From an uncultured Candidatus Peribacteria bacterium (GTDB taxonomy: Bacteria; Patescibacteriota; Gracilibacteria; Peribacterales; Peribacteraceae): DNA of 44,617 nucleotides. The notes beneath the pieces are model-generated. The model was not told the DNA's origin and did not search any database. It worked only from the letters and a program-made list of their open reading frames with translations. The stretch is taken from the NCBI GenBank assembly GCA_964478005.1, contig CAYZGJ010000001.1:1-44617 (forward strand), given 5' to 3'. Below are positions 1,275 to 44,023 of this stretch, piece after piece. The position numbers and the translations under genes are program-made. The number at the start of each line of letters is the position of its first letter. The first letter of the stretch is position 1.

Positions 1275-1949
1275 TCAGGAGACGGGGTCACCAGTCATTG
1301 TTTCCTCTCCCCGCAGCCACCACACGCCCAGGTAGACCAGCGGGGTCTGGAGGAACGAGACCGTGCACTTGAGGAGCCAGTAGGGAAGGATCAGGCTGAA
1401 GAGGAAGGCGGCATTGTCACCCGCGCTCCGGTCGAAGGCGTAGAAGGCGATGGTCATGAAGACGATGGTGTCCACCAGCTGCCCCAGGATGTTGGAAGCG
1501 TTGTTGCGCAGCCACAGGGCCCGGCCGTGCATGCGTTCGCGCAGCAGGGCGAAGACGTACACGTCCAGGAATTCGGCGGACGCGAAGGCCACCAGGCTGG
1601 CGAAGGCGATGCGCGCCGACGTGCTGAACACCGCGAAGTACGCTTCCTGCCTCTCCAGGAACCGGGCGGAGGGCGGGAGGTGGATGGCAAAGAGCGCGAA
1701 GAGGAGGATCAGCGCGATGACGAACAGCCCCGTGCGGACCACGTTGCGGGCCCGGGCCTTGCCGTAGACTTCATTGATGACGTCGATGATGGTGAACAGC
1801 GGCGGGATCAGAAAGATGCCCACGCTGGCATTGAGCTGGTACCCCCAGAGGTTGGCGAGGGGAAACGTTTTGCCCCCCATCAGCTCCGCCGCCGCCAGGC
1901 AGAAGATGTAGAGGCCCAGGAGGTAGTCGTACTTGTGCGCGGAGGGCAT
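1275..1949 (-). CDS. yhhQ: queuosine precursor transporter, VUT/YhhQ (DUF165) family
   Basis: 224-aa polytopic protein. Motifs PLFTIIDVINEVYG, FASAEFLDVYVF and NILGQLVDTIVF are typical of the YhhQ family. Confidence 0.8.
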   Translation of the reverse strand: MPSAHKYDYLLGLYIFCLAAAELMGGKTFPLANLWGYQLNASVGIFLIPPLFTIIDVINEVYGKARARNVVRTGLFVIALILLFALFAIHLPPSARFLERQEAYFAVFSTSARIAFASLVAFASAEFLDVYVFALLRERMHGRALWLRNNASNILGQLVDTIVFMTIAFYAFDRSAGDNAAFLFSLILPYWLLKCTVSFLQTPLVYLGVWWLRGEETMTGDPVS

Positions 1950-2003: not shown

Positions 2004-4433
2004 TCATTGGTCGTTCCGTCGCCCTCCCGGGTACAACCACGCCTTCTCCGCCAGAGCGGTCCTCGCCACCCGGCGGCTGATCCATCGCGAGACGAGGATG
2101 CCCGAGAACATGGAAATGACGACGCCCAGGCCCAGCGTGACCGCGAAGCCCCGCACGATGGAGGTGCCGATCGTGAAGAGGATGACGCAGGTGATCAGCG
2201 TGGAGACATTACTGTCGCGGATACTGGGCCAGGCCTTCTCGAAGCCGATCTCCACGGCGGTCTTCAGCAGCTTGCCGCGCCGCAGCTCCTCCTTCACGCG
2301 CTCAAAGACGAGGACGTTGGTATCCACGGCCATGCCGATGCTGAGGATGATGCCCGCCGCGCCCGCCAGCGTCAGGACGATGTACTGGTCGGTGACCAGG
2401 AAGAGCGGCAATTTGAGCAGGGCGAGGAAGATCGCCGCGTAGGCAAGCAGCGCGAGGTTGGCGATGAGGCCGAGCAGTCGGTACACCGCCAGCATGTAGC
2501 ACATGAGGATGAGCGCGCCGAGCAGTCCCGCCAGAACCGAGGTCTCCAGCGCCTGCGCGCCGAGCGTCGCCTCCACCGTGCGCTGGCCGCTCAAGTAGAT
2601 GGGGGCGGGGATGGCGCCGGTATTGAGGTCCTGCGCCAGTTGCTGCGCTTCCTGGATGGTGCCGGCGCCGGTGATGACGGCCGAGCCGCCGGTGATCTCG
2701 CCCTGGACGGTGGGGGCCGAAACCAGTTCGCCGCCCACGAAGATGGCGATGCGCCTGCCGACGTTGTTGCGCGTCAGCTCCTGGAAGAGCGCGCCGCCCT
2801 CCGGGCTGAAGAGGATCTGCACCACGGGGAGATTCGTGGTGGGGTCCAGCGTGACTGCGGCCGAGCGGAAGTGCGTGCCGGTCAGGGGCGTGTCCTTCCA
2901 GCCGGTGGGCTGCAGTGAGAAGAACAGCATCCGCAGGCCGATCGCCTCTTCCTGCTGCCGTACCCGTCCTTCCTCCAGGCGCGTCTTGAGTTCCTCCGCG
3001 CGGTCGGCCGCATCCGGACCCGTGAGGGTGAGGACGTCGTACGACGCGCGGTCACTGGCGCTCCGGGGAGCCTCGTTGACCCGGATGAGGTGGTAGCCGA
3101 ACGGCGTTTCGACCGGCTCGCTGATGATGCCCGGTTGCTGCGCGAAAGCGACGTCTTCGAACGCAGGGACCAGCTCGCCGCGGCCGATGCGTCCCAGGCT
3201 GCCCGCACTCTCCGCGGAGGGGCCGTCGGACTCCGTCCGTGCCAGATCCTCGAAGGATGCGCCATTCTCGAGTTGCTGCTTGAGTTCCTGTGCGCGCTGC
3301 AGGGCTTCCTCTTTCGTGCGGCGGACGGAGGCCTCTGCGGCATTGGCGCCGGAGTAGGCGACGAGGATGTGACTGACGTCCACTTCTTCCCGGCCGGCGG
3401 CGAAAGAGCGCAGGAAGAGGAGCCCGGCCGTGCCGTCCTCCATCTCCGCCACTCGCAGCGTGCCCGGTTGCATGCCGCGCAGCGCCCCGATGAGACGGCT
3501 GGAAGACAGCTCATCGAGCGCCTGATCCTCCTGGACGGATGCGGTGGCGCCCGTCTCGGTGCGCGCCAGGAGTTCGAAGGCGGCCGCGGCTTCCGCCACC
3601 GTGCGGCCGGTCATCGCGCGCGGCGAAACGACTTCCGCCAGGAAGATGCCGGGAATCTGCTGCTGGATGGGCTGCTGGTTCTCATCCGGGACCTGCACGG
3701 TCAGCGTGCCTTCGCGGCGCAGCACCCCCTGATCGGGCCGTGCATTCCACAGATCATCCAGTCCCTCCGGCAACGTATCCCGGAAGAAGAGGCGGTTGTC
3801 TTCGTAGGCGACGCCCAGCGTGCTGCCCACGTCCTGCCCCACCACCGCCAGGCTGACGCCGCTCTGGGTGATGCGGCGCTGCGCATCGTCCGCGCGGGCG
3901 CGCACGGAGGCTTCGTACTCTTCCGTGGCTTCGGTGAATTCTTCCTTGAATTCCAGCTGGATGGTCTTGCCGACGGTCTCGATGCACACCTGCACGTCCA
4001 CGACCCCGGGGCACTCCACCAGCAGGTGTTTCTCGCCGCCCACGTACGAAGGCGTGATGACGGCCTCGCTCACGCCCAGCGCATTCACCCGGCGCTCCAG
4101 CACCGTGCGGATGGCTTCCACCAGGTTCTGCCGCTGCTGCTCCACGACCTGCCGCTCCAGGCGCAGTTCGCTGATGCGTTCGCCGGATCCGTCCGCGGCT
4201 TCCAGCTGCGCAATCTCTTCATCGATGCGCCGCAGCTGCTCCCGGATCTCCTGCTCGGAGATGCGGAAATCCAGCTGCGTGCCGCCGGCCAGGTCCAGCC
4301 CCAGGTGCAGGCCGGGATTGAGCCAGGCGGGCGCCCATCCCTGCTTCCACTGGTCGGGCAGGGCGATGACGAGGATGACGGCCGCGACGAGCGCTGCGAG
4401 GAGCGGCTTGAGAGAGGCGGTACGGGAGGTCAT
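2004..4433 (-). CDS. secD: protein translocase subunit SecD with embedded parvulin-type PPIase domain
   Basis: N-terminal TM plus GLDLAGGTQL. C-terminal SecD core with five further TM helices (VYRLLGLIANLAL, SIGMAVDTNVLVFERVKEE, IRDSNVSTLIT). Aa about 354-453 (nt 3075-3374) read SHILVAY...GSLGRIGRGELVPAFEDVAF...PVETPFGYHLIRV, a PpiC/parvulin signature. Confidence 0.85.
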   Translation of the reverse strand: MTSRTASLKPLLAALVAAVILVIALPDQWKQGWAPAWLNPGLHLGLDLAGGTQLDFRISEQEIREQLRRIDEEIAQLEAADGSGERISELRLERQVVEQQRQNLVEAIRTVLERRVNALGVSEAVITPSYVGGEKHLLVECPGVVDVQVCIETVGKTIQLEFKEEFTEATEEYEASVRARADDAQRRITQSGVSLAVVGQDVGSTLGVAYEDNRLFFRDTLPEGLDDLWNARPDQGVLRREGTLTVQVPDENQQPIQQQIPGIFLAEVVSPRAMTGRTVAEAAAAFELLARTETGATASVQEDQALDELSSSRLIGALRGMQPGTLRVAEMEDGTAGLLFLRSFAAGREEVDVSHILVAYSGANAAEASVRRTKEEALQRAQELKQQLENGASFEDLARTESDGPSAESAGSLGRIGRGELVPAFEDVAFAQQPGIISEPVETPFGYHLIRVNEAPRSASDRASYDVLTLTGPDAADRAEELKTRLEEGRVRQQEEAIGLRMLFFSLQPTGWKDTPLTGTHFRSAAVTLDPTTNLPVVQILFSPEGGALFQELTRNNVGRRIAIFVGGELVSAPTVQGEITGGSAVITGAGTIQEAQQLAQDLNTGAIPAPIYLSGQRTVEATLGAQALETSVLAGLLGALILMCYMLAVYRLLGLIANLALLAYAAIFLALLKLPLFLVTDQYIVLTLAGAAGIILSIGMAVDTNVLVFERVKEELRRGKLLKTAVEIGFEKAWPSIRDSNVSTLITCVILFTIGTSIVRGFAVTLGLGVVISMFSGILVSRWISRRVARTALAEKAWLYPGGRRNDQ

Positions 4434-5110
4434 GGGAGAAGGGGAAGAGAGGAGCGCGGCGTGAAGGTGACGTGCGTGCCGACAATGACGTCATCGGCAA
4501 AGATCTCGGCGAAGGCGGGCGTCGGAATGCCGCGGATGATGATGTCTTCCCCGCTCCCGCCGCCGCTCTGCAGGATGCTGACCAGCACGCCCCGGACGAC
4601 GATGCCGATGGGCGTCTCGCCGGCGGATGCCAGGAGCGCGGCGTAGGCGGTGCGCCCTTCCTCCGTCAGCGTGATCCGGACGATGCCCTCCCCGCCCTCC
4701 GCCGCCGCCTCCACCCAGGCGAGGTGCTCCTCCGTGATGCCGGTGGCGCGGAAGCCGCCGAAGGATTCCACGGTGATATCCGCCGCCTCCCCCTCCTCCG
4801 CGGCGATCATGATCGCGAAGTCCAGCGGTCGCGCAAGCTGCTCGCTGAGCAGCTCGATGGTGGCGGGATCGTCCACGGTGACGTCCATCAGGAGCGACCC
4901 GTCCTCCTCCTGCCGGATGGCCTGCTCGATCAGCCGTACCTGCATGCTCTGGATGCGGCGTTCCACCACGCGCATGGCCGCCTGGGACAGCGCTTCGCGT
5001 CGGGCCGGGTCCTGCGTCTCCATCACGAGTGCGTACGATTCCGTCACCGCTCCGCCCGTACAGGCGGCGAGGAAGAGAAGGACGCTGAAGAGGGCTCCGA
5101 GGCGTTTCAT
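4430..5110 (-). CDS. lipoprotein resembling the SecD periplasmic P1 domain
   Basis: Start MKRLGALFSVLLFLAAC has a lipobox. RVVERRIQSM and IGIVVRGVLVSILQSGGGSGEDIIIRG parallel SecD VLERRVNALG and IAIFVGGELVSAPTVQGEITGGSAVITG. Stop overlaps the secD start as ATGA. Confidence 0.65.
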   Translation of the reverse strand: MKRLGALFSVLLFLAACTGGAVTESYALVMETQDPARREALSQAAMRVVERRIQSMQVRLIEQAIRQEEDGSLLMDVTVDDPATIELLSEQLARPLDFAIMIAAEEGEAADITVESFGGFRATGITEEHLAWVEAAAEGGEGIVRITLTEEGRTAYAALLASAGETPIGIVVRGVLVSILQSGGGSGEDIIIRGIPTPAFAEIFADDVIVGTHVTFTPRSSLPLLP

Positions 5111-5175
5111 GGGTGCAGGGAGTGTAGGGGAGGGTTGCGCGGGGTGCAATTGGATTGACTGATGTCCGATGGCGG

Positions 5176-6132
5176 TCAGCGGCGGATCAGCCGGGCGCCC
5201 GCGCGGATCATCTTGCCCGAGAGATCCACTCCCCGCAGCACGCACCCCTCATCGATCACGCAGTCCTCGATCACGCAGTCCTCGATCACGCAGTCGGCGA
5301 AGGTGACGGTATCCGTCAGACGGCTCTGCCGGACGGCCGTCCGGTCGCCCAGGACCACGCTGCCCGACGTCTCGCTCTCTTCCAGGACGGCGCCTTCCCC
5401 GCGGAGGACGCGGTCGCCCACCAGGCCGCGCGTGGCGTCCAGGTACGCAGAGAAGGACCCGATGTCGTACCACGGCGCGTCCGTCACGAAGCAATCGATG
5501 CCGATATTGCGCCGCAGACACTCTTCGAAGATGCCGCCGATGTTGTCGGGCCTGCGCTGTGCGTAGACGAGCAGCAGCGGCAGCACCTCGCGCGGGAGGA
5601 TCGAGCAGCCCGTGCTCACGATGCTGCTCCCGGGTTCCTGCGGCTTTTCTTCGAATCCGATGACGCCGCGGGTTTCCGCGTCCAGCAGGACCGTGCCGAA
5701 TGCCCGTGCCCGTGCGCGATCGTGGAGATCCACGGCGGCCAGCAGCGGGCGCTTGGGTTGGAATGCCCGCACAAATGCGCGCAGGTCGAATCCGAGGTAG
5801 TTGTCCCCGGCCAGCAGCAGCACGTCGTCGCGGATCTCCTCCCGCATGATCCACTGCGCCAGCGCCCCGAGCGCGCCCAGCTTGTCATCGTCACTCCTGG
5901 TTTCCTCGATGCGCACCGTCAGGGCGGGGTGGTCCATGGCTTCGGCCCACTGCATCATGTCCTCCCGGAACGCCGCGTTGGTGCTGACCGTCACAGGCAG
6001 GTCACGGGGCAGCCCGCGGACGATGTGCGTGAGGAGGGGGACGCCCGCCAGCGGCAGCAGCGGCTTGGCCCTCTTTTCCGTGAGGGGCCAGAGCCTGGTC
6101 GCATAGCCGCCGGCGAGGATGAAGACGCGCAT
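5176..6132 (-). CDS. sugar-1-phosphate nucleotidylyltransferase family protein with C-terminal left-handed beta-helix
   Basis: MRVFILAGGYATRLWPLTEKRAKPLLPLAG is the NTP-transferase G-loop. C-terminus has repetitive DCVIE units. Start at ATG 6132. Confidence 0.8.
   Translation of the reverse strand: MRVFILAGGYATRLWPLTEKRAKPLLPLAGVPLLTHIVRGLPRDLPVTVSTNAAFREDMMQWAEAMDHPALTVRIEETRSDDDKLGALGALAQWIMREEIRDDVLLLAGDNYLGFDLRAFVRAFQPKRPLLAAVDLHDRARARAFGTVLLDAETRGVIGFEEKPQEPGSSIVSTGCSILPREVLPLLLVYAQRRPDNIGGIFEECLRRNIGIDCFVTDAPWYDIGSFSAYLDATRGLVGDRVLRGEGAVLEESETSGSVVLGDRTAVRQSRLTDTVTFADCVIEDCVIEDCVIDEGCVLRGVDLSGKMIRAGARLIRR
5252..5296. repeat. 15-bp in-frame tandem repeat x3 (TCGATCACGCAGTCC)
   Basis: Two perfect copies plus one with a single mismatch. 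Encodes DCVIEDCVIEDCVID in the beta-helix tail of the nucleotidyltransferase. Confidence 0.9.
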
Positions 6133-6152
6133 GGGGAAGGGTTTCGAATGTA

Positions 6153-6180
6153 AAATGTTAAATGCAAAATGCAAAATGAT
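6153..6180. repeat. heptamer microsatellite (AAATGYW)x4
   Basis: aaatgtt aaatgca aaatgca aaatgat, 21 nt upstream of the nucleotidyltransferase start (minus strand). Same unit as 44024-44058. GCAAAATGATC here is inverted against GATCATTTTGC at 6247-6257. Confidence 0.85.
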
Positions 6181-6261
6181 CACCGGAGAGAGCTTCATCG
6201 TACATCGTCATTTCACATTTTGCATGGAGTCCGCCGCAGCGGACGATCATTTTGCATTGCT

Positions 6262-7062
6262 TCAAAAGAACCACTTCCACTTCCCCTCCTTGGGCCGCAC
6301 GACCGTCACCGGCTGTCCCTCCAGCGTCTCCACGCGTTCGTCACGTTCCACCATGCCCAGGACGGAGGGGAGCAGGAGGTAAGTGATGCCCCGGTTGCGG
6401 CAGGCGGAGAGCAGGTTGAGCGACTGCTCCAGATCGCTGCACTGGAGGAGGTGCGTGATGCGCTGCCCCGTCAGCACGTCTTCCAGCTTATTGAGTTTGC
6501 CCCGCACGGGGACGCCTGCGATCTCCGGCTCGGGAGTGCCGCGTCCGTCGAGCACGGCGACGGGCGTCAGGGGGTTGCGGCTGCGCTGCAGCGACTCGAT
6601 GAGGGCACGGGACTCGCGCGTGGCGCCGATGATCAGCGTGGGGAAGGCCGGAGGCGCGCGGCGCAGGAGCCGGCGCTGCAGACGGCCGAAGACGATGTGC
6701 CAGCCCCACGGAAGGACGACGGTGAGGGCCAGCGCCGTCAGCAGCAGCAGCCGACTGAAGAAGAGCCCGTAGACGAAGTAGTACCCCAGGGCGAAGAGCG
6801 CCGTCGCGACGACCGCCGCGTAGGCGATGTACATGCCCGTCCGCAGGCTTTCCTGATTCCTCAGCAGCGCGAACGTCCGCGTGGCGATCAGCGTGGCGAG
6901 CCACAGCGGCGCGGTGAGCAGCGCGATCAGCAGGAACCGGTCGAAGGGGAATGCGGTGGAGAGGACCCAGCCCACCCGCAGGAAGTACGCCAGTGCGTAG
7001 CATCCCACGAAGAGGGCCAGATCGGTCAGGAGCCAGAGGATCAGGAGGAGGGGGCGGCGCAT
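6262..7062 (-). CDS. N-terminal (TM plus Rossmann-like) portion of a polyprenyl glycosylphosphotransferase; catalytic domain absent
   Basis: Four to five TM helices, then TLIIGATRESRALIESL...VAVLDG...KLEDVL...ITHLLL as in WbaP/EPS-type sugar transferases. The ORF stops (KEGKWKWFF*) where the Bac_transf domain normally begins. Confidence 0.6.
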   Translation of the reverse strand: MRRPLLLILWLLTDLALFVGCYALAYFLRVGWVLSTAFPFDRFLLIALLTAPLWLATLIATRTFALLRNQESLRTGMYIAYAAVVATALFALGYYFVYGLFFSRLLLLTALALTVVLPWGWHIVFGRLQRRLLRRAPPAFPTLIIGATRESRALIESLQRSRNPLTPVAVLDGRGTPEPEIAGVPVRGKLNKLEDVLTGQRITHLLQCSDLEQSLNLLSACRNRGITYLLLPSVLGMVERDERVETLEGQPVTVVRPKEGKWKWFF

Positions 7063-7081
7063 GGCAACAGCATAATGCAAC

Positions 7082-7109
7082 AATGGATAATGGATAATGG
7101 ATAATGAAG
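7082..7109. repeat. heptamer microsatellite (AATGGAT)x3 plus a degenerate fourth copy (aatgaag)
   Basis: aatggat aatggat aatggat aatgaag, starting 20 nt upstream of ATG 7062 (minus strand). Same unit as 43937-43964. Confidence 0.9.
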
Positions 7110-7252
7110 GGAAGCGAAGGAAGGCGAAGAAGCTAAGGAAGCTACAGAGTGCTCTGCAGCGGGATCCATCGCAGCACAACACAAGATCAATGGAGATAGT
7201 GGATCTCCTGAGTTCTCAGCATCCATACAATCCTCAATACTCCTTAGCTTCT

Positions 7253-8137
7253 TTAGCTTCCTTCGAAATAGTCCTTAGCTTCTTTCAGGGCAATCGCCAG
7301 CTTCGTGATATCCCACGGAATCACCCGTCCCGGCACGTACAGGCTCTGCGCGATGGCGTCCGCCGGGAGCGACAGGTGCGTCTCCATCCACGCCAGCTTC
7401 GCGGCGAGAGCGGCATTCTCCGCCGCCCGCTGCGCCAGCATTTCCCGGTGCAGGACGTAGGCGGCGAAGGTTTCGGCAAAGTCCTCGAAGGCATCCGCTT
7501 TGGCGTAGCCCGAGATGAAGTCCTCCGTCCGGGCCTCTCTGCGCAGGACCCGTTCCGTCTCCCAGGAGATGGCGAAGAATGCGGCTGCGGGACTGTCGGC
7601 GTAGAACCGGTCGTGCCCGTCCCGGAAGACGCTGTCGCCGGCGGAGGGGGTGCCCGGCAGGTTTCCGTGCGTCACGTGGGCGCACTCGTGGACGAGCAGG
7701 CTGACGAATTCTTCCTCCGGCACCGTGCCGTCGAGGATGATGGTCGTCTTGCCTCCCAGCCCGCGGCGCGAGGCGTCGCCGTAGCGAACGTAGAAGGTGC
7801 GCAGGTGCGTGCGGCAGGCGGGGGGCAGCGCGAGGAGCGTCCGCAGCGTGAGGGCGCGGTGGCGGGAGGTCATCTCGCTGCGGTCGAGCACGGGCAGCAC
7901 GGAGGCGGGGAGCGTCTCGGCCGCCAGCACCTGAAAGGGGACTCCGATGCGTCGCGCGCGGCGTTCCTCCTGGCCAGCGAGCAGTCTGGTTGCGGGTGCG
8001 GTGGCTGCTTCCTGCAGGGAAACCGTGACCGTTTCGCTTGCCGACGGTGCAAACCATGGTACACTTGCGCCCAGAATCAGCAGTGCGGTGACGGCACTGG
8101 CGGCCGGAACGACGAGGAGATGCAGACGTCTGTTCAT
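7253..8137 (-). CDS. secreted putative zinc metallopeptidase (HExxH)
   Basis: Signal-like N-terminus MNRRLHLLVVPAASAVTALLILGA. Motif LLVHECAHVTHG. C-terminal DAFEDFAETFAAYV. Confidence 0.6.
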   Translation of the reverse strand: MNRRLHLLVVPAASAVTALLILGASVPWFAPSASETVTVSLQEAATAPATRLLAGQEERRARRIGVPFQVLAAETLPASVLPVLDRSEMTSRHRALTLRTLLALPPACRTHLRTFYVRYGDASRRGLGGKTTIILDGTVPEEEFVSLLVHECAHVTHGNLPGTPSAGDSVFRDGHDRFYADSPAAAFFAISWETERVLRREARTEDFISGYAKADAFEDFAETFAAYVLHREMLAQRAAENAALAAKLAWMETHLSLPADAIAQSLYVPGRVIPWDITKLAIALKEAKDYFEGS

Positions 8138-8183
8138 GGGCGGAAGAGCAGAAAGTAGCAATTTTTAACATCTTTCGATTCGC

Positions 8184-9638
8184 ATGTCAACATCCGTCGC
8201 GAGCGCGGTCCACAACGGGCAGCAGCTCGCCCTCACCATCGAGAAACTGACCCATGGCGGGGCCGGACTGGCTTTCGTAGACGGCCTGCCTGTCTTCGTT
8301 CCCGGAGCCACCCCCGGCCAGCAGGTCGAGGTCGTGATCACCAAGCAGCGCGGCAGCTACGCCGAAGCGAAACTGCAGCGCGTGGTGCGCCGGGCGATCG
8401 ACGATGTCCCGCCCCGCTGCCAGCACGTGCACGACTGCGGCGGCTGCAGCTGGCAGCACCTGCCGTACGACAAGCAGCTCACGCACAAAGAGGACATCGT
8501 CCGCGAGACCCTGGGGCATCTCACGCCCGTGGACGAGGATCTGCGCCGCCAGCTGCCGGGCCGCGTGCTCAAGATCATCCCCAGCCCCCAGGTCTTCCAC
8601 TACCGCAATAAATTGGAGCTCTCCTTCGGGTACGCCACCATGCGGACGGAGGAGCGCGCCGGCAAGCGCATCTATCTGGATCAGGATCCGTCCATCGGCT
8701 TCCATCGCCCCAGCGACTGGGCCACGGTGCTGCCGATCAGCGAGTGTCATCTGTACGACGAGCAGAGCGCTTCGCTGATTGCCGATGTGAAGCGCTTCCT
8801 GCAGGAGACGCGCCTGCCCGTCTACAATCCCAAGACGCACAAGGGGTTCCTGCGCACGCTGCTGCTGCGCCGCGGCGTGCACACGGGGGAACACATGCTC
8901 TGCTTTCTCGTCAATGCGCGGAAGAAGGAACTCGAGCCGCTCTTCCAGCACTTCATGCGCTTCGCCGGGCGGCCGGGACTCAAGAGCCTGCTCGTCGTCG
9001 AGCACACGGGCATGAGCGACAAGCCCGAGCAGCCGCAGGTCCATGCGCTCCTGGGCAAGCAGACCATCACCGAGCGCCTCTTCGACCTCACGTTCGAGAT
9101 CTCGCCGTTCTCCTTCTTCCAGACCAACACCCTGGGCGCCGAAAAGCTCTACCAGGCCATCGCGCGCGGCGCGGACCTGCAGCGCACCGACACCGTCCTG
9201 GACGCCTACTGCGGGATGGGGACCATCGGGCAGTACCTGGCGCGCTCGTGCGAGAAGGTGGTGGGCATCGAGAGCCACCCCGCCGCCATCCAGGACGCCC
9301 TGACCTCCAGCGGCCGCAACCGCATCGCCAACATCAGCTTCTACAAGGGCCGCGCCGAGCAGGTCCTGCGCGACCAGCTGCAGCCGGGCGGCAAGTACCA
9401 CTTCGACGTCATTGTGGTCGATCCGCCCCGCGCGGGCCTCCACCCCAAGGCGCTCGATGCCCTGATCGCCCACGCCCCGCGCACGCTGGTCTACGTTTCG
9501 TGCAACACGGCGACCCTCGCGCGCGACATGGGCGGCCTCCTGAAAGCCGGCTACGAACTGCGCACCGTCCAGCCCGTCGACATGTTCCCCCACACGCCGC
9601 ACATCGAGACGGTCAGCGTGCTGGAGAGGAAGGGGTAG
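8184..9638 (+). CDS. rlmD: 23S rRNA (uracil-C5)-methyltransferase RlmD/RumA family (TRAM plus Fe-S plus SAM MTase)
   Basis: TRAM-like N-terminus (LTHGGAGLAFVDGLPVFVPGATPGQ). Cys cluster CQHVHDCGGCSWQH. MTase motifs LDAYCGMGTIG, VIVVDPPRAGL, YVSCNTATLARD. Confidence 0.9.
   Translation: MSTSVASAVHNGQQLALTIEKLTHGGAGLAFVDGLPVFVPGATPGQQVEVVITKQRGSYAEAKLQRVVRRAIDDVPPRCQHVHDCGGCSWQHLPYDKQLTHKEDIVRETLGHLTPVDEDLRRQLPGRVLKIIPSPQVFHYRNKLELSFGYATMRTEERAGKRIYLDQDPSIGFHRPSDWATVLPISECHLYDEQSASLIADVKRFLQETRLPVYNPKTHKGFLRTLLLRRGVHTGEHMLCFLVNARKKELEPLFQHFMRFAGRPGLKSLLVVEHTGMSDKPEQPQVHALLGKQTITERLFDLTFEISPFSFFQTNTLGAEKLYQAIARGADLQRTDTVLDAYCGMGTIGQYLARSCEKVVGIESHPAAIQDALTSSGRNRIANISFYKGRAEQVLRDQLQPGGKYHFDVIVVDPPRAGLHPKALDALIAHAPRTLVYVSCNTATLARDMGGLLKAGYELRTVQPVDMFPHTPHIETVSVLERKG
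9575..9627. repeat. direct repeat copy A: last 53 bp region of rlmD
   Basis: CGTCGACATGTTCCCCCACACGCCGCACATCGAGACGGTCAGCGTGCTGGAGA recurs at 10385-10437 with one mismatch. Confidence 0.95.
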
Positions 9639-9643
9639 GCAGA

Positions 9644-10267
9644 TTATTGTGCGCGATAATCTTTCGGATCAATGCATGCATCGAACGTCGTACGGTCTAT
9701 CCGAATCCACTCGGTACCATTGATGCCGCGTGCATGTTTGACGGTTGGACTATAGGGAAATGCGGATGCAATTTTGATCCATCTGTGTTGCTCGCGTGCG
9801 ATGATGCGTATCTCATCCGCCACCTCCGATAAGTCCTGGTCCTGACTGAGGACGAGCGCGACATCGAATTGTCTTTTGTGTGCAAGGTTGATGACATCCA
9901 CAGCGATGCGGACGTCGATGCCCTTTTCCTCGCCGACCAAAAAACTGTGGGTGGTTCCATCGGGGAGAGTGACAATTTTGTTGCGATAGCGCAACGGGCG
10001 CGAATACACTCGTACGCCCGACCGCATCATTGCCAGTTTCTTTGCCGCCCAGAACTGATGCCATGTTTCATTGTCTGCGCTATCCGGTACTCCCGTATAG
10101 AAGCGTACTTCCGCACATTCCCAGTGATGTTGCGTACAGAGCGTTTGAGCCAATCGCAGCGGATCACTATTGGGGTAGGTATAACCAAAGGCTTTCAGTG
10201 CAGCATGAAACAAATTCTGACCATCGATGAAGACCATTGCCCGTTTGGTGGGTGGCTCAGGAGGCAC
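9644..10267 (-). CDS. NYN (LabA/PIN-like) domain protein
   Basis: KRAMVFIDGQNLFHAALKAFG...EEKGIDVRIAVDVINLA...DVALVLSQDQDLSEVADE. AT-richer than the flanks. GTG start 10267 chosen because TATTTT lies 6 nt upstream; alternatives are ATG 10237 and ATG 10393. Confidence 0.75.
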   Translation of the reverse strand: MPPEPPTKRAMVFIDGQNLFHAALKAFGYTYPNSDPLRLAQTLCTQHHWECAEVRFYTGVPDSADNETWHQFWAAKKLAMMRSGVRVYSRPLRYRNKIVTLPDGTTHSFLVGEEKGIDVRIAVDVINLAHKRQFDVALVLSQDQDLSEVADEIRIIAREQHRWIKIASAFPYSPTVKHARGINGTEWIRIDRTTFDACIDPKDYRAQ

Positions 10268-10384
10268 GCGCAAAAAATAACCCCGCCCGGGCTTTGCAGC
10301 AAGTCGGTCGGGGAGGAAGTACGTACAGTATAAGGCATTGTTGATATAAATCAATCCATTCACTCCTTTTTCCCAGTAGCAAAT

Positions 10385-10437
10385 CGTCGACATGTTCCCC
10401 CACACCCCGCACATCGAGACGGTCAGCGTGCTGGAGA
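10385..10437. repeat. direct repeat copy B: vestigial rlmD 3' end
   Basis: 52/53 identical to 9575-9627. Would encode VDMFPHTPHIETVSVLEMK* against VDMFPHTPHIETVSVLERKG* in the intact gene. Confidence 0.95.
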
Positions 10438-10452
10438 TGAAGTGACGGAGGG

Positions 10453-10488
10453 GAGAAAAGGCAGGAAGGGCAGAAAAGGCAGGAAGGT
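10453..10488. repeat. 18-bp tandem repeat x2 (AGAAAAGGCAGGAAGG core)
   Basis: gagaaaaggcaggaaggg / cagaaaaggcaggaaggt immediately after repeat copy B. Confidence 0.8.
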
Positions 10489-10504
10489 TGTGCGGTGACA
10501 CCCG

Positions 10505-10663
10505 TTACACCTTCTGCATCTCCTCGCGTTTGCGGGTTGCCTCTTTTTCCAGCTGCTCGGCTTCCCGCTGCAGACGCTCCGCTTTGCGTGCGGCTTCCTT
10601 GCGCGCAGCAGCTTCTCTTTCCAATTGTTTCGCCTGTTCTTTCAGCATGTCTGCATCGGCCAT
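10505..10663 (-). CDS. small charged coiled-coil protein (52 aa), hypothetical
   Basis: MADADMLKEQAKQLEREAAARKEAARKAERLQREAEQLEKEATRKREEMQKV. This is the only part of the long antisense ORF 10505-11239 that does not overlap rlmH. Confidence 0.35.
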   Translation of the reverse strand: MADADMLKEQAKQLEREAAARKEAARKAERLQREAEQLEKEATRKREEMQKV

Positions 10664-10741
10664 GGGAAAAGGGGGAAAGTGTCCGTCAGTGTAGACGGAT
10701 GAAGGGCGGGGGAGTGACGGAATGCGTGGTAGAGTGTTCGC

Positions 10742-11206
10742 ATGCAGAAGATCACCCTCCTCACGATCGGCGCGCTGAAGGAGTCCTGGGCGAAGGAGGC
10801 GGCGCGTCTGTATCGCGAGCGCATCGTGCATGCCGCGGATCTGCGGGTGCTGGAATTGCAGCCCAGCCGCCAGCCGCATGCGGCGGGGCAGCAGGCGGAG
10901 GAATCGGAGCGATTGCTCCTTTCCGCACGCAAACAGCCGGGACTTCTGATCGTCCTCGACGAACGGGGCGAGGACATTACATCGCAGGAACTTGCAGAGC
11001 TGCTGGGAACAGCCCGGGACCGGGGCGAATCGTTGCAATTCATTCTGGGCGGGTCCTATGGCCTCACCGATACCGTCCGTTCCTCGGCGCACACGGTCCT
11101 GCGCCTCAGCTCCCTGACGCTGCCGCATGAGCTCTGCAGAGTGCTCTTTCTCGAACAGCTCTACCGGGGCTTCGAAATGCTCAAAGGGAGCGGGTATCAC
11201 CATTGA
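10742..11206 (+). CDS. rlmH: 23S rRNA (pseudouridine1915-N3)-methyltransferase RlmH (SPOUT)
   Basis: 154 aa. LDERGEDITSQELAELL, FILGGSYGL, LSSLTLPHELCRVLFLEQLYRGF...GSGYHH are typical of RlmH. TGGTAGAGT lies 6 nt upstream of the ATG. Confidence 0.9.
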   Translation: MQKITLLTIGALKESWAKEAARLYRERIVHAADLRVLELQPSRQPHAAGQQAEESERLLLSARKQPGLLIVLDERGEDITSQELAELLGTARDRGESLQFILGGSYGLTDTVRSSAHTVLRLSSLTLPHELCRVLFLEQLYRGFEMLKGSGYHH

Positions 11207-11230
11207 ATGCCGCATTCGGTATTTTTTGAG

Positions 11231-11259
11231 TTGTCGCATCGCGCTCGCTTTCCTATACT
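11231..11259 (+). promoter_or_regulatory. sigma70-like promoter for tRNA-Glu
   Basis: TTGTCG (11231-11236), 17-nt spacer, TATACT (11254-11259), about 40 nt upstream of the tRNA. Confidence 0.5.
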
Positions 11260-11299
11260 CTGTGCCCGTCGCCTCCGGCGATCGTTCTTTTCTCTCTGT

Positions 11300-11374
11300 G
11301 GCGCCATCGTCTAGCGGTTAGGACGCCAGGTTCTCATCCTGGTAACCGGGGTTCGATTCCCCGTGGCGCTGCCA
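11300..11374 (+). tRNA. tRNA-Glu (anticodon CUC), CCA encoded
   Basis: Manual cloverleaf: acceptor GGCGCCA/TGGCGCT, D arm GTCT-AGCGGTTA-GGAC, anticodon arm CCAGG-TTCTCAT-CCTGG, variable TAAC, T arm CGGGG-TTCGATT-CCCCG, discriminator G, CCA. Confidence 0.92.
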
Positions 11375-11380
11375 TTTCTG

Positions 11381-11429
11381 TCTCTACCGCGCCCACGAAA
11401 TCCTGAAGGGGAGCGGGTATCATCACTGA
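11381..11429 (+). pseudogene. diverged duplicate of the rlmH 3' end
   Basis: ctctaccgcgcccacgaaatcctgaaggggagcgggtatcatcactga aligns with rlmH 11159-11206 (39/48). It would encode LYRAHEILKGSGYHH* against LYRGFEMLKGSGYHH*. Confidence 0.8.
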
Positions 11430-11469
11430 TTCCTCGCGCACCTCTGTCGATTGGTGTACAGTGTTCCTC

Positions 11470-11634
11470 ATGCAAAAAATTCACGTCGAGCAGCACTCGT
11501 TCACGGGCGGCATGTGGTTCGCCCTGTGGCTCTTCACCATCGGGTTCCTGCAGCTTGGCTTCTGGAAGGGCGTGCTGGCGCTCCTCCTGTGGCCGTACTT
11601 TTTGGGCGCGGCGCTGAGCGGACTGCTGTCATAG
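11470..11634 (+). CDS. small two-TM membrane protein (54 aa), below the ORF-track cutoff
   Basis: MQKIHVEQHSFTGGMWFALWLFTIGFLQLGFWKGVLALLLWPYFLGAALSGLLS. TACAGT lies 7 nt upstream of the ATG. Its 3' end is duplicated at 13962-13994. Confidence 0.6.
   Translation: MQKIHVEQHSFTGGMWFALWLFTIGFLQLGFWKGVLALLLWPYFLGAALSGLLS
11590..11622. repeat. direct repeat copy A (33 bp, 3' end of small membrane gene)
   Basis: TGGCCGTACTTTTTGGGCGCGGCGCTGAGCGGA is identical to 13962-13994. Confidence 0.95.
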
Positions 11635-11802
11635 GGCGTCGTTTTTCCGTATGCTCTCCAGTATCTCCAGCATCCGCTGCCAGGCTGCGGAGCGAGCGGA
11701 GGCGTTTTCGTGCGAAGCGTCTGGTTCTTCCTCCAGCCGCATGAAAGCGTGGCCGGCTCCCTCGTAGATGACGGGTGCAAACGCGATGTGCGTCAGCGAA
11801 AA
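11629..11802 (-). pseudogene. C-terminal remnant of a dienelactone hydrolase-family gene
   Basis: Minus-strand frame reads FSLTHIAFAPVIYEGAGHAFMRLEEEPDASHENASARSAAWQRMLEILESIRKNDAL*. It is preceded by an in-frame TGA, has no start, and lacks the N-terminal three quarters of the fold. Confidence 0.45.
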
Positions 11803-11825
11803 TCATTCCGCATTCGTGTATGCAT

Positions 11826-12053
11826 TCACAATCTACAAGGCAAATCCAACCCAAGATTACATCCGATTACAAAAACGAATAAAAGAATCATGCCACCGGA
11901 AAGCATCACAATGGTGACCATAATAGCTGTAAATACAATCATCTCCGGCCACTTTCGTCGCTTCCAATACAGAAACACATTCCTTCCCAATATGAACATG
12001 AGCGTACCCCAGAGCAGTACGATACTACCAAGAATGAGGTTATCTTCATTCAT
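11826..12053 (-). CDS. small membrane protein, hypothetical (75 aa)
   Basis: Two to three hydrophobic helices in an AT-rich patch. No recognisable family. Confidence 0.4.
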   Translation of the reverse strand: MNEDNLILGSIVLLWGTLMFILGRNVFLYWKRRKWPEMIVFTAIMVTIVMLSGGMILLFVFVIGCNLGLDLPCRL

Positions 12054-12128
12054 GTAAGAATGCTATCACACATTGCCATCGGGAGAGTCTCTTGAGATTT
12101 TAATGAACAAGAGGACTACACTGTGCCA

Positions 12129-13952
12129 ATGAAGCTGTCTGCTCTCCGCAGGATGCCGGATTTCCGCCGGGCGCGCGATGCCGTGTCCGTCTCCCGGCGG
12201 TTGCTCGGGATGATCTGGGATATGGACCCGAAACTGTTCATTGGATCATTGATTGTGATCCTCATTCCGGCTGTCATTCCCTTCATCAATGCGTACATCT
12301 ACAAACTTCTCATTGATGCGGTAATCCTGAACATTGCCGGTGCGGCGCTGGAGGTCCGGCACCTCGTCATTCTCCTTATCATCCGCGTTGCCACGTACTT
12401 TTTGCAGGATGCTTCCTTCAGCGCGCAGACCTACATGGAGAGATTGCTATGGACCAAGTTTCCCATCTATTTGCATCAGCGCTTGTACACGGACCTGTCG
12501 CAACTGGATATGGAGACATTGGAGAATCCGCAATTCCGCAATACGCTGGAGCAGGTGAAGGAATCGGTGTACCGTCCTCAGAATCTCATTACCAACTTGC
12601 TCTACGGCTGTCAGAGTCTCGTGCAACTCTTCATCGCATTCGGTGCTCTTCTCGCACTGAACTGGGTGTTCATTCTGTTGGTACTCTTCGTCGCCATCCC
12701 CGAATTCGTCTATCGCCTTTACGAAGACAAAGCCGGATGGACCATCTGGGCTTGGCACAGTCCGCGCAAGAAGCGATTTTCCTATGTGTCGCACTTGTTG
12801 CAGGATGCGCAGAGCGTCAAGGAAATGCGCATTTTTCGGTTGGCACCGCTCTTTGTACGGGAGGCGACGGAGGCACAGGAAGCGTTTTATCGCGAGAACA
12901 AGGCGCTCGCGGGACGGGCACTTCTGTTTCAGATTCTGTTCAATGTTCTCTCCACCCTTCTGATCGTCGGTATCGAAACATATGTCATCCTGCTTGCGTT
13001 TCTGCGTCGGGTGACGATCGGTGACATCAGTTTTTACACGTCCGTGGTGGCCAACTTTCAAAACGGTCTCGGGGGATTGCTGCGCAATATGAACGGCATT
13101 TTTGAATCGAGTTTGTATGTTCGGAGTATCTTCGATGTCATGGATGCCCCGAGGCACATTGTTTCTCCACCCGATGCTCCGGCCAGGACGATGCATCGGC
13201 CGCCGTCCATCGTGTTCGATCACGTGACATTTCGTTATCCGGGTGCGGACCGGGATGTTCTGCATGATTTTTGCGTTGGTATCGCTCCGGGCGAGAAGGT
13301 GGCTTTTGTGGGAGAGAACGGCGCGGGAAAAACGACGATCATCAAGCTGTTGGCGCGCTTCCATGATCCCACGTCCGGACGCATTCTCGTCGATGACAAG
13401 GATTTGCGGGAGCTTCACTTGGAGAGCTGGCATCAGCAGTTGGCCGTTCTGTTTCAGGATTTCAACCGCTACGAAGATACGGCGAAGCATAATATATATT
13501 TTGGGAATGTGCTTAAAGCGATGGATGCACGGGAAATCGAAAGGGCCGCAGAGGATGCAGGAGCCACAGTCGTCATTGATACCTTGAAGAAAGGATATGA
13601 TCAGATGCTCGGACGCGTGTTCGAATCGGGGGAGGAGTTATCGGTGGGTCAGTGGCAAAAGATTGCGCTGGCGCGGGCATATTTTCGGAATGCGCCGGTG
13701 CTGGTGCTGGATGAGCCCACGGCGGCCATCGATGCCAAAGCGGAAGCGGAGATTTTCGCGCGGGTGGAGGAGCTGAGTCAGGATAAGACCGTCCTCCTCA
13801 TTTCCCATCGGTTCTCGACCGTCCGCATGGCCGATCGCATCATCGTGGTGCAGGACGGTGCGGTGCTCGAGCAGGGCAGCCACGATGCATTGATGAAACG
13901 AAAAGGTCTGTATGCGGAACTCTTCACTCTGCAGGCGAAAGGATATCGTTGA
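12129..13952 (+). CDS. ABC exporter, fused permease/ATPase (MsbA/multidrug-like)
   Basis: Six N-terminal TM helices. Walker A GENGAGKTT, signature LSVGQWQK, Walker B VLVLDEPT, H-loop LISHR. TACACT (12117-12122) lies 6 nt upstream of ATG 12129; the ORF track starts at GTG 12123. Confidence 0.9.
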   Translation: MKLSALRRMPDFRRARDAVSVSRRLLGMIWDMDPKLFIGSLIVILIPAVIPFINAYIYKLLIDAVILNIAGAALEVRHLVILLIIRVATYFLQDASFSAQTYMERLLWTKFPIYLHQRLYTDLSQLDMETLENPQFRNTLEQVKESVYRPQNLITNLLYGCQSLVQLFIAFGALLALNWVFILLVLFVAIPEFVYRLYEDKAGWTIWAWHSPRKKRFSYVSHLLQDAQSVKEMRIFRLAPLFVREATEAQEAFYRENKALAGRALLFQILFNVLSTLLIVGIETYVILLAFLRRVTIGDISFYTSVVANFQNGLGGLLRNMNGIFESSLYVRSIFDVMDAPRHIVSPPDAPARTMHRPPSIVFDHVTFRYPGADRDVLHDFCVGIAPGEKVAFVGENGAGKTTIIKLLARFHDPTSGRILVDDKDLRELHLESWHQQLAVLFQDFNRYEDTAKHNIYFGNVLKAMDAREIERAAEDAGATVVIDTLKKGYDQMLGRVFESGEELSVGQWQKIALARAYFRNAPVLVLDEPTAAIDAKAEAEIFARVEELSQDKTVLLISHRFSTVRMADRIIVVQDGAVLEQGSHDALMKRKGLYAELFTLQAKGYR

Positions 13953-13961
13953 TTCATCAGT

Positions 13962-13994
13962 TGGCCGTACTTTTTGGGCGCGGCGCTGAGCGGA
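13962..13994. repeat. direct repeat copy B (33 bp)
   Basis: Identical to 11590-11622. Would encode WPYFLGAALSGWL*. Confidence 0.95.
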
Positions 13995-14031
13995 TGGCTC
14001 TGATCGCCGCGCCCGTTGGGATGCCATGGGC

Positions 14032-14232
14032 TTACGGATTGCCGCCGTTGCCCGGTCCGGGGAGGTTCACGTCGATGTCGTCGGGCACAGCGGGAGGAAG
14101 CAGGATGTTATCCGTGCCTGCGGGTTCCGCCCACAGGAGCCTGATGGCGTAGAAGGCGACGGCGAGGATGGCCACGATGGCGATGATCGCGAGGATGACG
14201 CTGCCCATGTTGTTGCTGTCATTGTCCGCCAT
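14032..14232 (-). CDS. small single-TM protein, hypothetical (66 aa)
   Basis: MADNDSNNMGSVILAIIAIVAILAVAFYAIRLLW followed by a Pro-rich tail. Confidence 0.45.
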   Translation of the reverse strand: MADNDSNNMGSVILAIIAIVAILAVAFYAIRLLWAEPAGTDNILLPPAVPDDIDVNLPGPGNGGNP

Positions 14233-14272
14233 AGGAGAAGATGGGGAAAGGGACAGAAGGTGCGCGACGCGA

Positions 14273-14518
14273 TCAGGCGGGGCGCTTGAAGAGGCTGGCC
14301 AGCCCCAAGAAGACGACCGCGCCCACGACGGCCATGGCGAGCGTGCCGAGCACGTTGGTGTCGGCGATGCCCAGCATCCGGAAGAGGAGTCCCCCGACGA
14401 GGGCGCCGATGACGCCGACGACGAGGTCGCCGACCAGGCCGAAGCCGCGGCCCTTCATGATGAGGCCGGCAATCCAGCCGGCGACGATGCCGATGACGAT
14501 GAATCCGAGGAGTTCCAT
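14273..14518 (-). CDS. GlsB/YeaQ/YmgE family stress-response membrane protein
   Basis: 81 aa. IVIGIVAGWIAGLIMKGRGFGLVGDLVVGVIGALVGGLLF is typical of the transglycosylase-associated protein family. Confidence 0.8.
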   Translation of the reverse strand: MELLGFIVIGIVAGWIAGLIMKGRGFGLVGDLVVGVIGALVGGLLFRMLGIADTNVLGTLAMAVVGAVVFLGLASLFKRPA

Positions 14519-22800: not shown

Positions 22801-22968
22801 AGACGTTCCGGCGGAACGTCTTTACTGCATGGGACGAGAGAGATATCCGGCGGAACGTCTGTACTGCATGGGGCGAGAGAGATATCCGCTGCAACGTCTG
22901 TACTGCATGGGACGAGAGAGATATCCGGCTGCATGGGACGAGAGAGATATCCGCCGGAACGTCTCTAC
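22797..22968. repeat. composite REP array filling a convergent intergenic region
   Basis: Left end GTAGAGACGTTCCGGCGGAACGTCT, right end CCGGAACGTCTCTAC. In between, the core CTGCATGGGRCGAGAGAGATATCCG occurs at 22825, 22864, 22903 and 22929 (39-bp period, then 26). Confidence 0.9.
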
Positions 22969-36482: not shown

Positions 36483-36701
36483 TCAGCCACGAAATGGTCG
36501 TCCCATGGCCCCGGCTACAGCCCCACGCACACCCGCAACAAGGGTCCTACCTAGGGCACCACCTGCATATCCGGCAGCAGATCCACTAAATACAACAGCA
36601 TCACCCAAGGTAGCAGCCACCCCACGTCTCGTGCCGGCGCATACATGTTCGACAGCACTTAGTGCAACGGGGCCCGTTTCAGGATGTCGTCGGACCGGCA
36701 T
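36483..36701 (-). CDS. Gly/Ala-rich small protein (72 aa), hypothetical
   Basis: Its start overlaps the stop of the 297-aa ORF as TAATG. GVAATLGDAVVFSGSAAGYAGGALGRTLVAGVRGAVAGAMG is glycine-zipper-like. Confidence 0.45.
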   Translation of the reverse strand: MPVRRHPETGPVALSAVEHVCAGTRRGVAATLGDAVVFSGSAAGYAGGALGRTLVAGVRGAVAGAMGRPFRG

Positions 36702-37594
36702 TATGCAGTTGTGGAAGCGGGAGGGGCATCTGCGGCCGGTGCAGCACCGGGAGTCTCGGGAGCGGCGGCGGGTGCGGGGGCAGGAGCAGCAGGTGCTTCA
36801 GGAGTGGATGCCGGTGGAGCGGATGCAGGAGCAGGAGTCGATTGCTGTTGCATATTCTCTTTCACTTTTTGCGCACTCTCCAATATATCCTTTGTAGTAA
36901 GTTTTTGCTTGTTCGAGGGGCTTTGCTCGACCACACTGATCAGAAAGGATGCAAGCGGAATCTGTTGCGCAGCCACTTTCCCGCTATTGACACTACTGAG
37001 AATTTTGACAACTTCTCGCATGTTCTCGTCATCCTTGGACCCCGCCTCAAATGTTCTCTTGTTTGCACTGAGAGCAGCGAAAAGCTCTTTCATCCCCGGC
37101 CCCTTCGGCAGCAGCCAATCGGGCACGGTGATTCCAAAACTCATTAAGGATGGTAAGAGCGGCCCCAACATTTTTGCCAGCAAATTTTGCAACTTATCCG
37201 CCGTCTCCATGAGCATATTCGTAATCTTTGTCACCGCACCCATGCCTTTTTCAATATTGTCTTGCGCAAAGAGCACCGTATTATCTTGGAATCTTTGATA
37301 AATACTGTCGATACTGAGTTGTGTAGCTTCTACAGCATCCCTCAATGCATCCGGCACTTCATCCAGTCGCCATTTGGCTACTTCAGTCTTGAGACCATCC
37401 AGAGCTTCTCCACTCATGTTCTTCACTTGCTCGCGCGCGTCTCTCAACGCAGTCAATGCGCTGTTCACGATATCTTCCGACACTTCCGCACCGGTCTCTT
37501 GCACTACTTTCATTCTTTCTCGTATTGCGCTCAGTGTATCGACTGGGCGCTCAGGTGGATTGGTGTCGGGTGCGGAACCGGGTGCGTTTGTCAT
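36701..37594 (-). CDS. 297-aa helical protein with Pro/Ala-rich C-terminal tail, hypothetical
   Basis: Long ORF in the same low-GC block, with no TM helix and no motif. The tail reads STPAPASAPPASTPEAPAAPAPAPAAAPETPGAAPAADAPPA. Confidence 0.6.
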   Translation of the reverse strand: MTNAPGSAPDTNPPERPVDTLSAIRERMKVVQETGAEVSEDIVNSALTALRDAREQVKNMSGEALDGLKTEVAKWRLDEVPDALRDAVEATQLSIDSIYQRFQDNTVLFAQDNIEKGMGAVTKITNMLMETADKLQNLLAKMLGPLLPSLMSFGITVPDWLLPKGPGMKELFAALSANKRTFEAGSKDDENMREVVKILSSVNSGKVAAQQIPLASFLISVVEQSPSNKQKLTTKDILESAQKVKENMQQQSTPAPASAPPASTPEAPAAPAPAPAAAPETPGAAPAADAPPASTTA

Positions 37595-44000: not shown

Positions 44001-44023
44001 AGGACCAATGCCGAATGAATGCT

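Follow-up and report, generated by a model that had tools for sequence, protein, structure and literature searches.

Orphaned 3′ gene regions have been described at type VI secretion system (T6SS) and Rhs loci, where they were explained by homology-facilitated illegitimate recombination (Kirchberger et al. 2017, PMC5361080), a process reported in naturally transformable Acinetobacter, S. pneumoniae, and P. stutzeri (PMC3240628, PMC5361080). Here, we describe such a structure in a 44,617-nt stretch of DNA from an uncultured Candidatus Peribacteria bacterium (hereafter the window), in which the 3′ end of rlmH, the gene for 23S rRNA (pseudouridine1915-N3)-methyltransferase, is followed by a tRNA-Glu(CTC) gene and then by a second, orphaned copy of the rlmH 3′ end. 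On balance, this orphan is probably the scar of recombination between two diverged versions of the Peribacteria locus, that is, of a C-terminal displacement. Read in this way, the rlmH locus adds a further example to an established class of recombination scars and does not reveal a new type of mobile element; its tRNA is ordinary.

As in C-terminal displacement at Rhs, contact-dependent inhibition (CDI), and T6SS loci, the displaced old 3′ fragment lies behind a complete gene that has gained a new 3′ end and cargo, orphans are stacked by arrival, the alleles stem from other strains and are not products of duplication, and no recombinase is involved (PMC5361080). The Peribacteria cases differ in that they affect housekeeping rRNA methyltransferases and a small membrane protein rather than polymorphic toxins, in that the orphans are 21–96 nt long and encode nothing useful, whereas toxin orphans keep their tips and immunity genes, and in that the host belongs to the Candidate Phyla Radiation (CPR). 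With homology-facilitated illegitimate recombination the locus shares one homologous anchor and one illegitimate junction, which together admit foreign DNA beside a conserved gene. In experiments, such recombination usually deletes recipient DNA beyond the anchor and leaves no short duplicate of the anchor end, which is a difference from the structure seen here. Integrase-dependent islands, integrative and conjugative elements, and cis-mobilisable elements that insert at the 3′ end of tRNA or protein genes similarly carry direct repeats that overlap this end, regenerate the gene, and may accrete in tandem; here, however, no integrase was found among the ORFs scanned, crossover positions are not fixed, ends are not conserved, and three target genes lie side by side. 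Integron cassette arrays also add single-gene units at a fixed end, push older units downstream, and carry a related short repeat after each, as in two relatives treated below (L005 and L007), but no intI, attI, or attC-like folded site was seen here, and the repeat is the end of the upstream gene.

The orphaned rlmH 3′ end and its allele type

The functional rlmH gene (10742–11206, plus strand) is complete, encodes 154 aa in the list of open reading frames (ORFs), and matched the Pfam family SPOUT_MTase (E=2e-40). Of 289 RlmH homologues (closest, 87% identity), those with a source name, like the reference loci found with RlmH, belong to Peribacteria or Peregrinibacteria metagenome-assembled genomes (MAGs). 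An ungapped 48-mer comparison paired the functional 3′ end (11159–11206, plus strand), which reads LYRGFEMLKGSGYHH before its stop, with an orphan at 11382–11429 (plus strand), which reads LYRAHEILKGSGYHH before a TGA stop and has no start codon. The copies are identical at 39 of 48 nt (81%) without gaps, keep the rlmH frame, lie 223 bp apart in direct orientation, and have an identical 14-nt stretch in common (GGGAGCGGGTATCA); an independent repeat search reported the pair as family D9. The runner-up 48-mer matches to the rlmH end in the whole window reached 25–26/48, and the top match in 200 whole-window shuffles was 30/48 (mean, 25.7). The ORF list holds no ORF of at least 30 codons in the rlmH frame of the orphan, which is thus not part of a gene. 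The original prediction had placed a repeat of the rlmH end, in frame with its own TGA, after the tRNA at 11381–11429; the 48-mer comparison bore out the repeat, the similarity exceeded the shuffled controls, and the end position stood, whereas the start was corrected by one base to 11382.

The target-site duplication of a transposon or insertion sequence is expected to be a repeat of 2–15 bp, identical at formation, accompanied by terminal inverted repeats and a transposase. A test for such an origin failed: the repeat spans 48 nt and is 81% identical, no transposase turned up in the ORFs scanned, and terminal inverted repeats are missing from the stretch between the copies.

Several lines of evidence assign the orphan to an rlmH allele other than the functional one. 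The dominant RlmH C-terminus among the 120 homologues listed is LYRAxEIxKGSGYHH, which the orphan fits exactly, and all nine residues that are invariant in the family alignment (L140, Y141, R142, E145, G149, S150, Y152, H153, and H154) are kept in it. The orphan is of the AHEI type and the functional end of the GFEM type, a variant that, among the homologues listed, is common only to the closest relative (P0002, locus L001; 87% aa identity). By nucleotide identity, the best match of the orphan is the rlmH end of a different relative, L005 (41/45 nt, versus 36/45 to the functional end of the window itself), and the functional end is nearest to that of L001 (39/45). The nine differences between the two copies fall 1/2/6 on codon positions 1/2/3 (P=0.04 alone), and the three outside third positions all lie in two variable codons; pooled over seven orphans, specifically this one and the six described below, functional and orphan ends differ 7/4/40 by codon position (P=5e-11). 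This third-position bias indicates that the copies diverged as working genes and not by decay after a local duplication. Likewise, a fragment that had been neutral since the split between the window and L001, whose rlmH genes differ at ∼20% of nucleotides, would be expected to show many random changes, which were not seen. The two copies therefore evolved as functional genes in separate lineages before being joined fairly recently, and the orphan is a true rlmH terminus of another allele type, shaped by purifying selection. Both the predicted origin of the second copy from a different rlmH allele and the predicted predominance of synonymous or conservative substitutions agree with these results.

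Alternatively, the rlmH end, alone or together with the tRNA, might have been duplicated locally in tandem, one copy then decaying, which would fit the direct orientation and the spacing of 223 bp. Such a duplication would not be expected to confine most differences to synonymous sites or two variable residues, with frame, stop, and invariant residues intact, nor to leave the orphan closer to the gene of another lineage than to its neighbour; given these observations and the pooled codon-position bias, we regard it as extremely unlikely.

tRNA-Glu(CTC) and the junction downstream of it

The 175-bp insert that separates rlmH from its orphan contains nothing beyond a terminator, a promoter, and a tRNA gene. 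Directly after the rlmH stop lies a terminator-like hairpin with a T-run (11205–11230, plus strand; stem 11205–11224, then TTTGAGTTGT), followed by a promoter-like site for the tRNA, TTGTCG-17-TATACT (11231–11259, plus strand), which was the sole such site within 11100–11700 in a promoter scan (shuffles average 0.1). The tRNA-Glu gene (11300–11374, plus strand) has the anticodon CTC and an encoded CCA, was found by ARAGORN and by Rfam (RF00005; 61.6 bits, gathering score 29), and is 84–89% identical to the tRNA-Glu(CTC) genes of relatives; the Rfam scan of 9400–14400 yielded nothing besides it. A tRNA-Glu gene preceded by its own promoter-like site thus lies between the two rlmH ends, in agreement with the original proposal. 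Only seven bases of the tRNA trailer remain (TTTCTGT, 11375–11381, plus strand): in L032 and L045, which were used for comparison, the trailer reads TTCTCGTGAAGGACAAAC... (TTCTCGTGAAGG...), whereas that of the window stops after ∼7 nt, where the rlmH orphan takes over, placing the breakpoint at 11381|11382. The TTTCTG of the tRNA trailer recurs in rlmH, upstream of LYR, but the junction does not look like a simple microhomology join. A tRNA-targeted island was also considered and rejected, as a search of the window for a duplicate of the tRNA 3′ end gave none.

To place this arrangement among relatives, rlmH loci were collected by an RlmH alignment scan of one genome per species and then searched with ARAGORN, giving 60 Peribacteria and Peregrinibacteria loci. 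A plus-strand tRNA-Glu(CTC) gene lies downstream of rlmH in 17 of the 60, at a distance of 70–355 bp in nine (L006, L008, L011, L017, L032, L037, L039, L043, and L050), and a minus-strand tRNA-Glu(CTC) gene lies ≤4 kb from rlmH in five further loci. A TATACT box precedes the tRNA-Glu gene at the matching position in L006, L008, L011, L017, L037, L039, L043, and L050. Larger gaps between rlmH and the tRNA hold inserted extra genes, for example acetyl-CoA synthetase in L002. The order rlmH, promoter, tRNA-Glu(CTC) is thus a common Peribacteria arrangement, and the tRNA is an ordinary neighbour of rlmH and not an exotic module. Comparison of the locus across relatives, which had been proposed as a check, did reveal orphaned rlmH ends in four further genomes, but the tRNA proved not to be special to the window. 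The claim that a tRNA module had arrived was consequently not upheld: the tRNA was either carried in with the rlmH end or in place before the orphan and the DNA on its far side were joined to it.

The gene on that far side is orf57 (11470–11634, plus strand), identified from the ORF list and by homologue comparison, which encodes a conserved 54-aa membrane protein. Proteins of this family (53–55 aa) are conserved across many phyla (305 matches). A TGTAnAnT box resembling a −10 element lies 7–9 nt before the orf57 ATG in the window (11455–11470), in L005 (5864–5881), and in L045 (6495–6515, minus strand), which suggests that the orf57 mRNA may be leaderless or have a very short leader. The contexts of the nearest orf57 homologues (L090–L094) were also inspected; they come from unrelated organisms and were uninformative.

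Gene-end duplicates at rlmD, at orf57, and in other Peribacteria

The rlmH orphan is one of three gene-end duplicates, of rlmD, rlmH, and orf57, that fall within 4.5 kb of the window. The functional 3′ end of rlmD (9575–9638, plus strand), located by repeat finding and alignment, recurs as an orphan at 10385–10445 (plus strand), which ends in VSVLEMK and has its stop where that of L001 sits; the repeat (9575–9632 and 10385–10442) is identical at 56 of 58 nt. Between the copies lies a minus-strand NYN/LabA-domain gene (9644–10240; profile match) whose GC content at third codon positions (GC3) is 0.55–0.57, versus 0.84–0.94 in its native neighbours. The 3′ end of orf57 (11590–11634, plus strand) likewise recurs as an orphan at 13962–14002 (plus strand), reading WPYFLGAALSGWL before its stop; both copies were delimited by repeat finding, and the first 33 nt of the repeat (11590–11632 and 13962–14004) are identical. 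The 2.3 kb between them (11635–13961) is lower-GC cargo, comprising, from the ORF list and Pfam, a minus-strand 75-aa membrane ORF and a plus-strand ABC transporter gene (12123–13952), the latter atypical in its GC3 of 0.66 against 0.84–0.94 for native genes. The gene-end duplicates that had been noted in passing at rlmD and at 11590–13994 are thus both real. Across lineages, nucleotide identity is 84–91% at the rlmD end and 81–92% at the rlmH end, whereas for most relatives the aligned genes reach 65–76% (rlmH of L001, the closest relative, 80%); all three duplicated patches are locally ultra-conserved.

In five relatives (L001, L002, L004, L085, and L086), rlmD directly abuts rlmH. In the window, ∼280 bp (10446–10725) with a minus-strand ORF for a 53-aa coiled-coil protein (10505–10665) separate the rlmD orphan from the rlmH promoter; this segment has no counterpart in L001, whose rlmD and rlmH are separated by 24 bp, and no duplicate was seen flanking it. 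The rlmD–rlmH interval of L064 holds a gene for a four-helix-bundle "23S rRNA intervening sequence protein" (3520–3972; Pfam match), and that of L025 holds another (3505–3882), recognised by sequence similarity only. Apparent duplicates of the rlmD end in L020 and L025 proved to be intergenic repeat motifs from an over-extended gene end and were not counted; a 21-nt match to the rlmD end in L028 was also left out of the counts.

Six further rlmH orphans in four genomes (two each in L005 and L007, one each in L023 and L064) came to light when the loci were searched for the pattern in six frames and each gene tail was compared with its own locus by blastn; in every case a complete rlmH lies upstream, and cargo separates it from the orphan. 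In L005, the first orphan (96 nt, 87/96 identity) follows an NYN gene, and the second (42 nt) reads RAHEILKGSGYHH. The L007 orphans (42 and 39 nt) each follow a single minus-strand gene, the second of which encodes a Zn-peptidase; in both L005 and L007 the orphans are thus stacked two deep. The L023 orphan is 21 nt long, and that of L064 (48–51 nt) starts just 25–28 nt past the functional stop. An in-frame stop is retained in five of the seven orphans, window included, and the points at which they begin, 21, 39, 42, 42, 48, 48–51, and 96 nt before the stop, define no fixed crossover position. The window duplicates of rlmH, rlmD, and orf57 and the cases in L005, L007, L023, and L064 share one anatomy, in which an intact gene that carries a new end is followed first by cargo and then by the old end in the same orientation. 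As a separate observation, related motifs resembling CACCCTGAGCCTGTCGAAGGG recur near rlmH, specifically in L064 (4466–4493), where the motif makes up almost the entire 25–28-nt insert, and in the rlmH–tRNA spacers of L032 and L039, where a relative of it occurs in the opposite orientation.

Direct repeats of a gene end that regenerate the target gene are the classical signature of attachment sites, which the rlmH copies display, and they could therefore be the attL and attR of a small integrative or cis-mobilisable element that used an rlmH-end-like att site and a tyrosine or serine recombinase supplied in trans. The identical 14-nt stretch of the two copies and the stacking in L005 and L007, which resembles tandem accretion, would suit such a remnant. 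Against it, the 175-bp insert consists of terminator, promoter, and tRNA only; no match to integrase or transposase families (Phage_integrase, Resolvase, transposase) was found among 20 window and 10 insert ORFs; the orphans begin at varying points, 21 to 96 nt before the stop; duplicates of this kind affect three different genes within 4.5 kb; no tRNA 3′-end duplicate is present in the window; and the insert ends have no motif in common, as nine insert boundaries, compared over the 60 nt on their inner side, yielded no 8-mer common to ≥3 and no 7-mer common to ≥4. We consider site-specific integration quite unlikely. Decidedly unlikely, too, is an undescribed, dedicated Peribacteria process that would insert cassettes into the last 20–100 nt of rlmH, rlmD, and orf57 and regenerate the gene end, to which such a reading would add integron-like stacking of single genes and a trans-acting enzyme unlike known recombinases. 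The suggestion that one insertion mechanism had acted at all three window genes fared accordingly: it holds for a generic recombination process with a shared footprint, but the lack of a motif, the lack of a recombinase, and orphan lengths of 21–96 nt speak against anything more specific.

The NYN gene was considered as a mobilising, homing-like agent, as NYN genes sit inside both the rlmD duplicate of the window and the rlmH duplicate of L005. It was dismissed because the two are just 28% identical, because no gene-end repeat flanks the closest homologue from Peregrinibacteria (L095), and because in L101–L104 the NYN gene is cargo beside a phage integrase. The NYN/LabA family of the window reaches 65–78% identity across very different phyla (6520 matches), and the distant second NYN gene, inside the rlmH-end duplicate of L005, spans 4634–5296. 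The NYN gene appears to be an often-transferred accessory gene and is possibly related to defence.

Direction of the proposed exchange and the region downstream of rlmH

Recombination with DNA from a related genome, one of the two origins first proposed, was the best reading of the window, given the foreign-type allele, the third-position bias, and the footprint also seen at rlmD and orf57. We infer both its mechanism, which would be one-sided, combining homologous with illegitimate recombination, and its direction. The homologous junction would lie inside or upstream of the conserved gene, and the illegitimate junction would be the breakpoint at 11381|11382, seven bases past the tRNA. In the favoured direction, the incoming DNA would have comprised a GFEM-type rlmH 3′ part, the terminator, and the promoter with tRNA-Glu(CTC), and would have been joined 48 nt upstream of the resident rlmH stop, so that the resident AHEI-type end, still linked to orf57, would have moved downstream while rlmH was left intact. 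The same process would explain the duplicates of the rlmD and orf57 ends and the stacked rlmH orphans elsewhere.

This direction is favoured by its polarity, which is that of all other cases, and by L005, in which an rlmH orphan also adjoins orf57. The orf57 homologue of L005 follows the second orphan at the same ∼42-bp spacing as in the window; this orphan matches that of the window at 40 of 42 nt, with a left boundary 6 nt shorter, and right-side synteny between the two extends from orf57 to an AI-2E transporter. Read side by side, the window and L005 show poor conservation of the orphan–orf57 spacer. The simplest reading would be an ancestor in which rlmH of the AHEI type stood directly before orf57, its end having been displaced independently in both lineages. 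A single DNA pattern scan of Joint Genome Institute (JGI) metagenomes for the ancestral adjacency of rlmH end and orf57 gave only L089, a second public record of the same organism as L005, which shows the L005 structure and was identical by eye over the inspected region. On the left flank, L005 carries its tRNA-Glu(CTC) gene inverted (1546–1620, minus strand), 2.4 kb upstream of rlmH and adjoined by a gene for a C-5 cytosine DNA methyltransferase (2884–3906, minus strand), and its rlmD is not adjacent to rlmH; the inverted tRNA and the non-adjacent rlmD indicate that this flank was rearranged in the L005 lineage.

The exchange may instead have run in the opposite direction, with L005-like donor DNA, from 48 nt before the rlmH stop through orf57, joined seven bases past a resident tRNA. 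The homology anchor would then lie on the right, the orphan would be donor DNA, and the resident GFEM-type rlmH and tRNA-Glu would never have moved. The order rlmH–tRNA-Glu, common among the surveyed loci (17/60) and equipped with a conserved promoter, favours this direction, as do L045, a distant relative in which tRNA-Glu is followed after 90 bp by orf57 with no orphan, and the affinities of the sequences themselves: the functional rlmH groups with L001, the closest relative, and so does the rlmD end, and the orphan groups with L005 (41/45 to its gene, 40/42 to its own orphan). The polarity, however, would be contrary to the other eight cases, in which the cargo sits between complete gene and orphan; taking the orphan as the resident end in L005 as well as in the window explains the L005 orphan beside orf57 more simply; and the poorly conserved orphan–orf57 spacer implies that the donor was not especially L005-like. 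We regard this direction as a minor but real possibility, rather unlikely as a whole.

Other observations weigh against displacement by incoming rlmH and tRNA, or against the recombination scar more generally. Neither a donor nor a pre-insertion allele was found. In a search for close strains, the six window proteins that could be checked, RlmH and five others, formed singleton 90% clusters, giving no relative at ≥90% protein identity and no pre-insertion allele. The functional rlmH is closest to L001 along its whole length; chimerism of the gene was considered and rejected, as sliding-window identity gave no visible crossover. L001 has no tRNA after rlmH, and the order in L045 (tRNA, 90 bp, orf57) fits an ancestral rlmH–tRNA–orf57 arrangement in which the orphan is the sole intruder. 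The GC3 of rlmH is 0.77 and that of rlmD 0.92; in the family, rlmH usually lies ∼0.06 below rlmD (sd 0.06), so the deficit of 0.14 is just ∼1.4 sd beyond the family norm. Finally, all seven orphans are <100 nt long, a shortness that a random illegitimate join does not predict; longer direct repeats may have been lost by recombination, or possibly only the ultra-conserved terminal patch pairs between genomes as diverged as these.

An assembly chimera, in which co-occurring strains with rlmH(GFEM)–tRNA and rlmH(AHEI)–orf57 were threaded into one contig, would agree with the window proteins being singletons on one contig and with the structure having no independent assembly. The junction, however, shares at most 6–7 nt with rlmH, which is too short for a k-mer join, and contains no Ns, and analogous structures occur in independent MAGs of other studies, that of L005 being present in L089 as well; a chimera is very unlikely.

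In the relatives, the upstream synteny from SecD through rlmD–rlmH is conserved, and the content after rlmH varies, with EamA in L001, ADP-forming acetyl-CoA synthetase in L002, a cyclic oligonucleotide-based antiphage signalling system (CBASS) in L085, and other genes in L086 and L088. The CBASS operon of L085, a relative with 71% identity, comprises SMODS, E2-CBASS, and SAVED (6107–8827) and lies ∼0.6 kb past rlmH, after two small ORFs; it indicates that the hotspot collects defence genes. Elsewhere in the window, two minus-strand ORFs of 1346 aa (32376–36416; GC3 0.57) and 297 aa (36701–37594; GC3 0.50) stand out from others at ∼0.9, had no Pfam match, and are probably another horizontally acquired block. 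A 39-nt tandem repeat of three to four copies (22807–22955; 91% identity) lies in or beside a minus-strand ORF, and short repeats of the AATGCAAAATGCAA type occur at two distant AT-rich intergenic sites (6154–6174 and 44018–44066).

Taken as a recombination scar, the rlmH locus and its counterparts offer evidence at the sequence level that CPR lineages only ∼70–80% identical in nucleotides exchange DNA, with breakpoints at a few ultra-conserved patches at gene ends. The rlmH 3′ end marks one border of a hypervariable region across Peribacteria, whose cargo includes NYN genes, transporters, and defence systems. As datable footprints, the orphaned ends could help to reconstruct the order of gene gains in organisms that resist cultivation.

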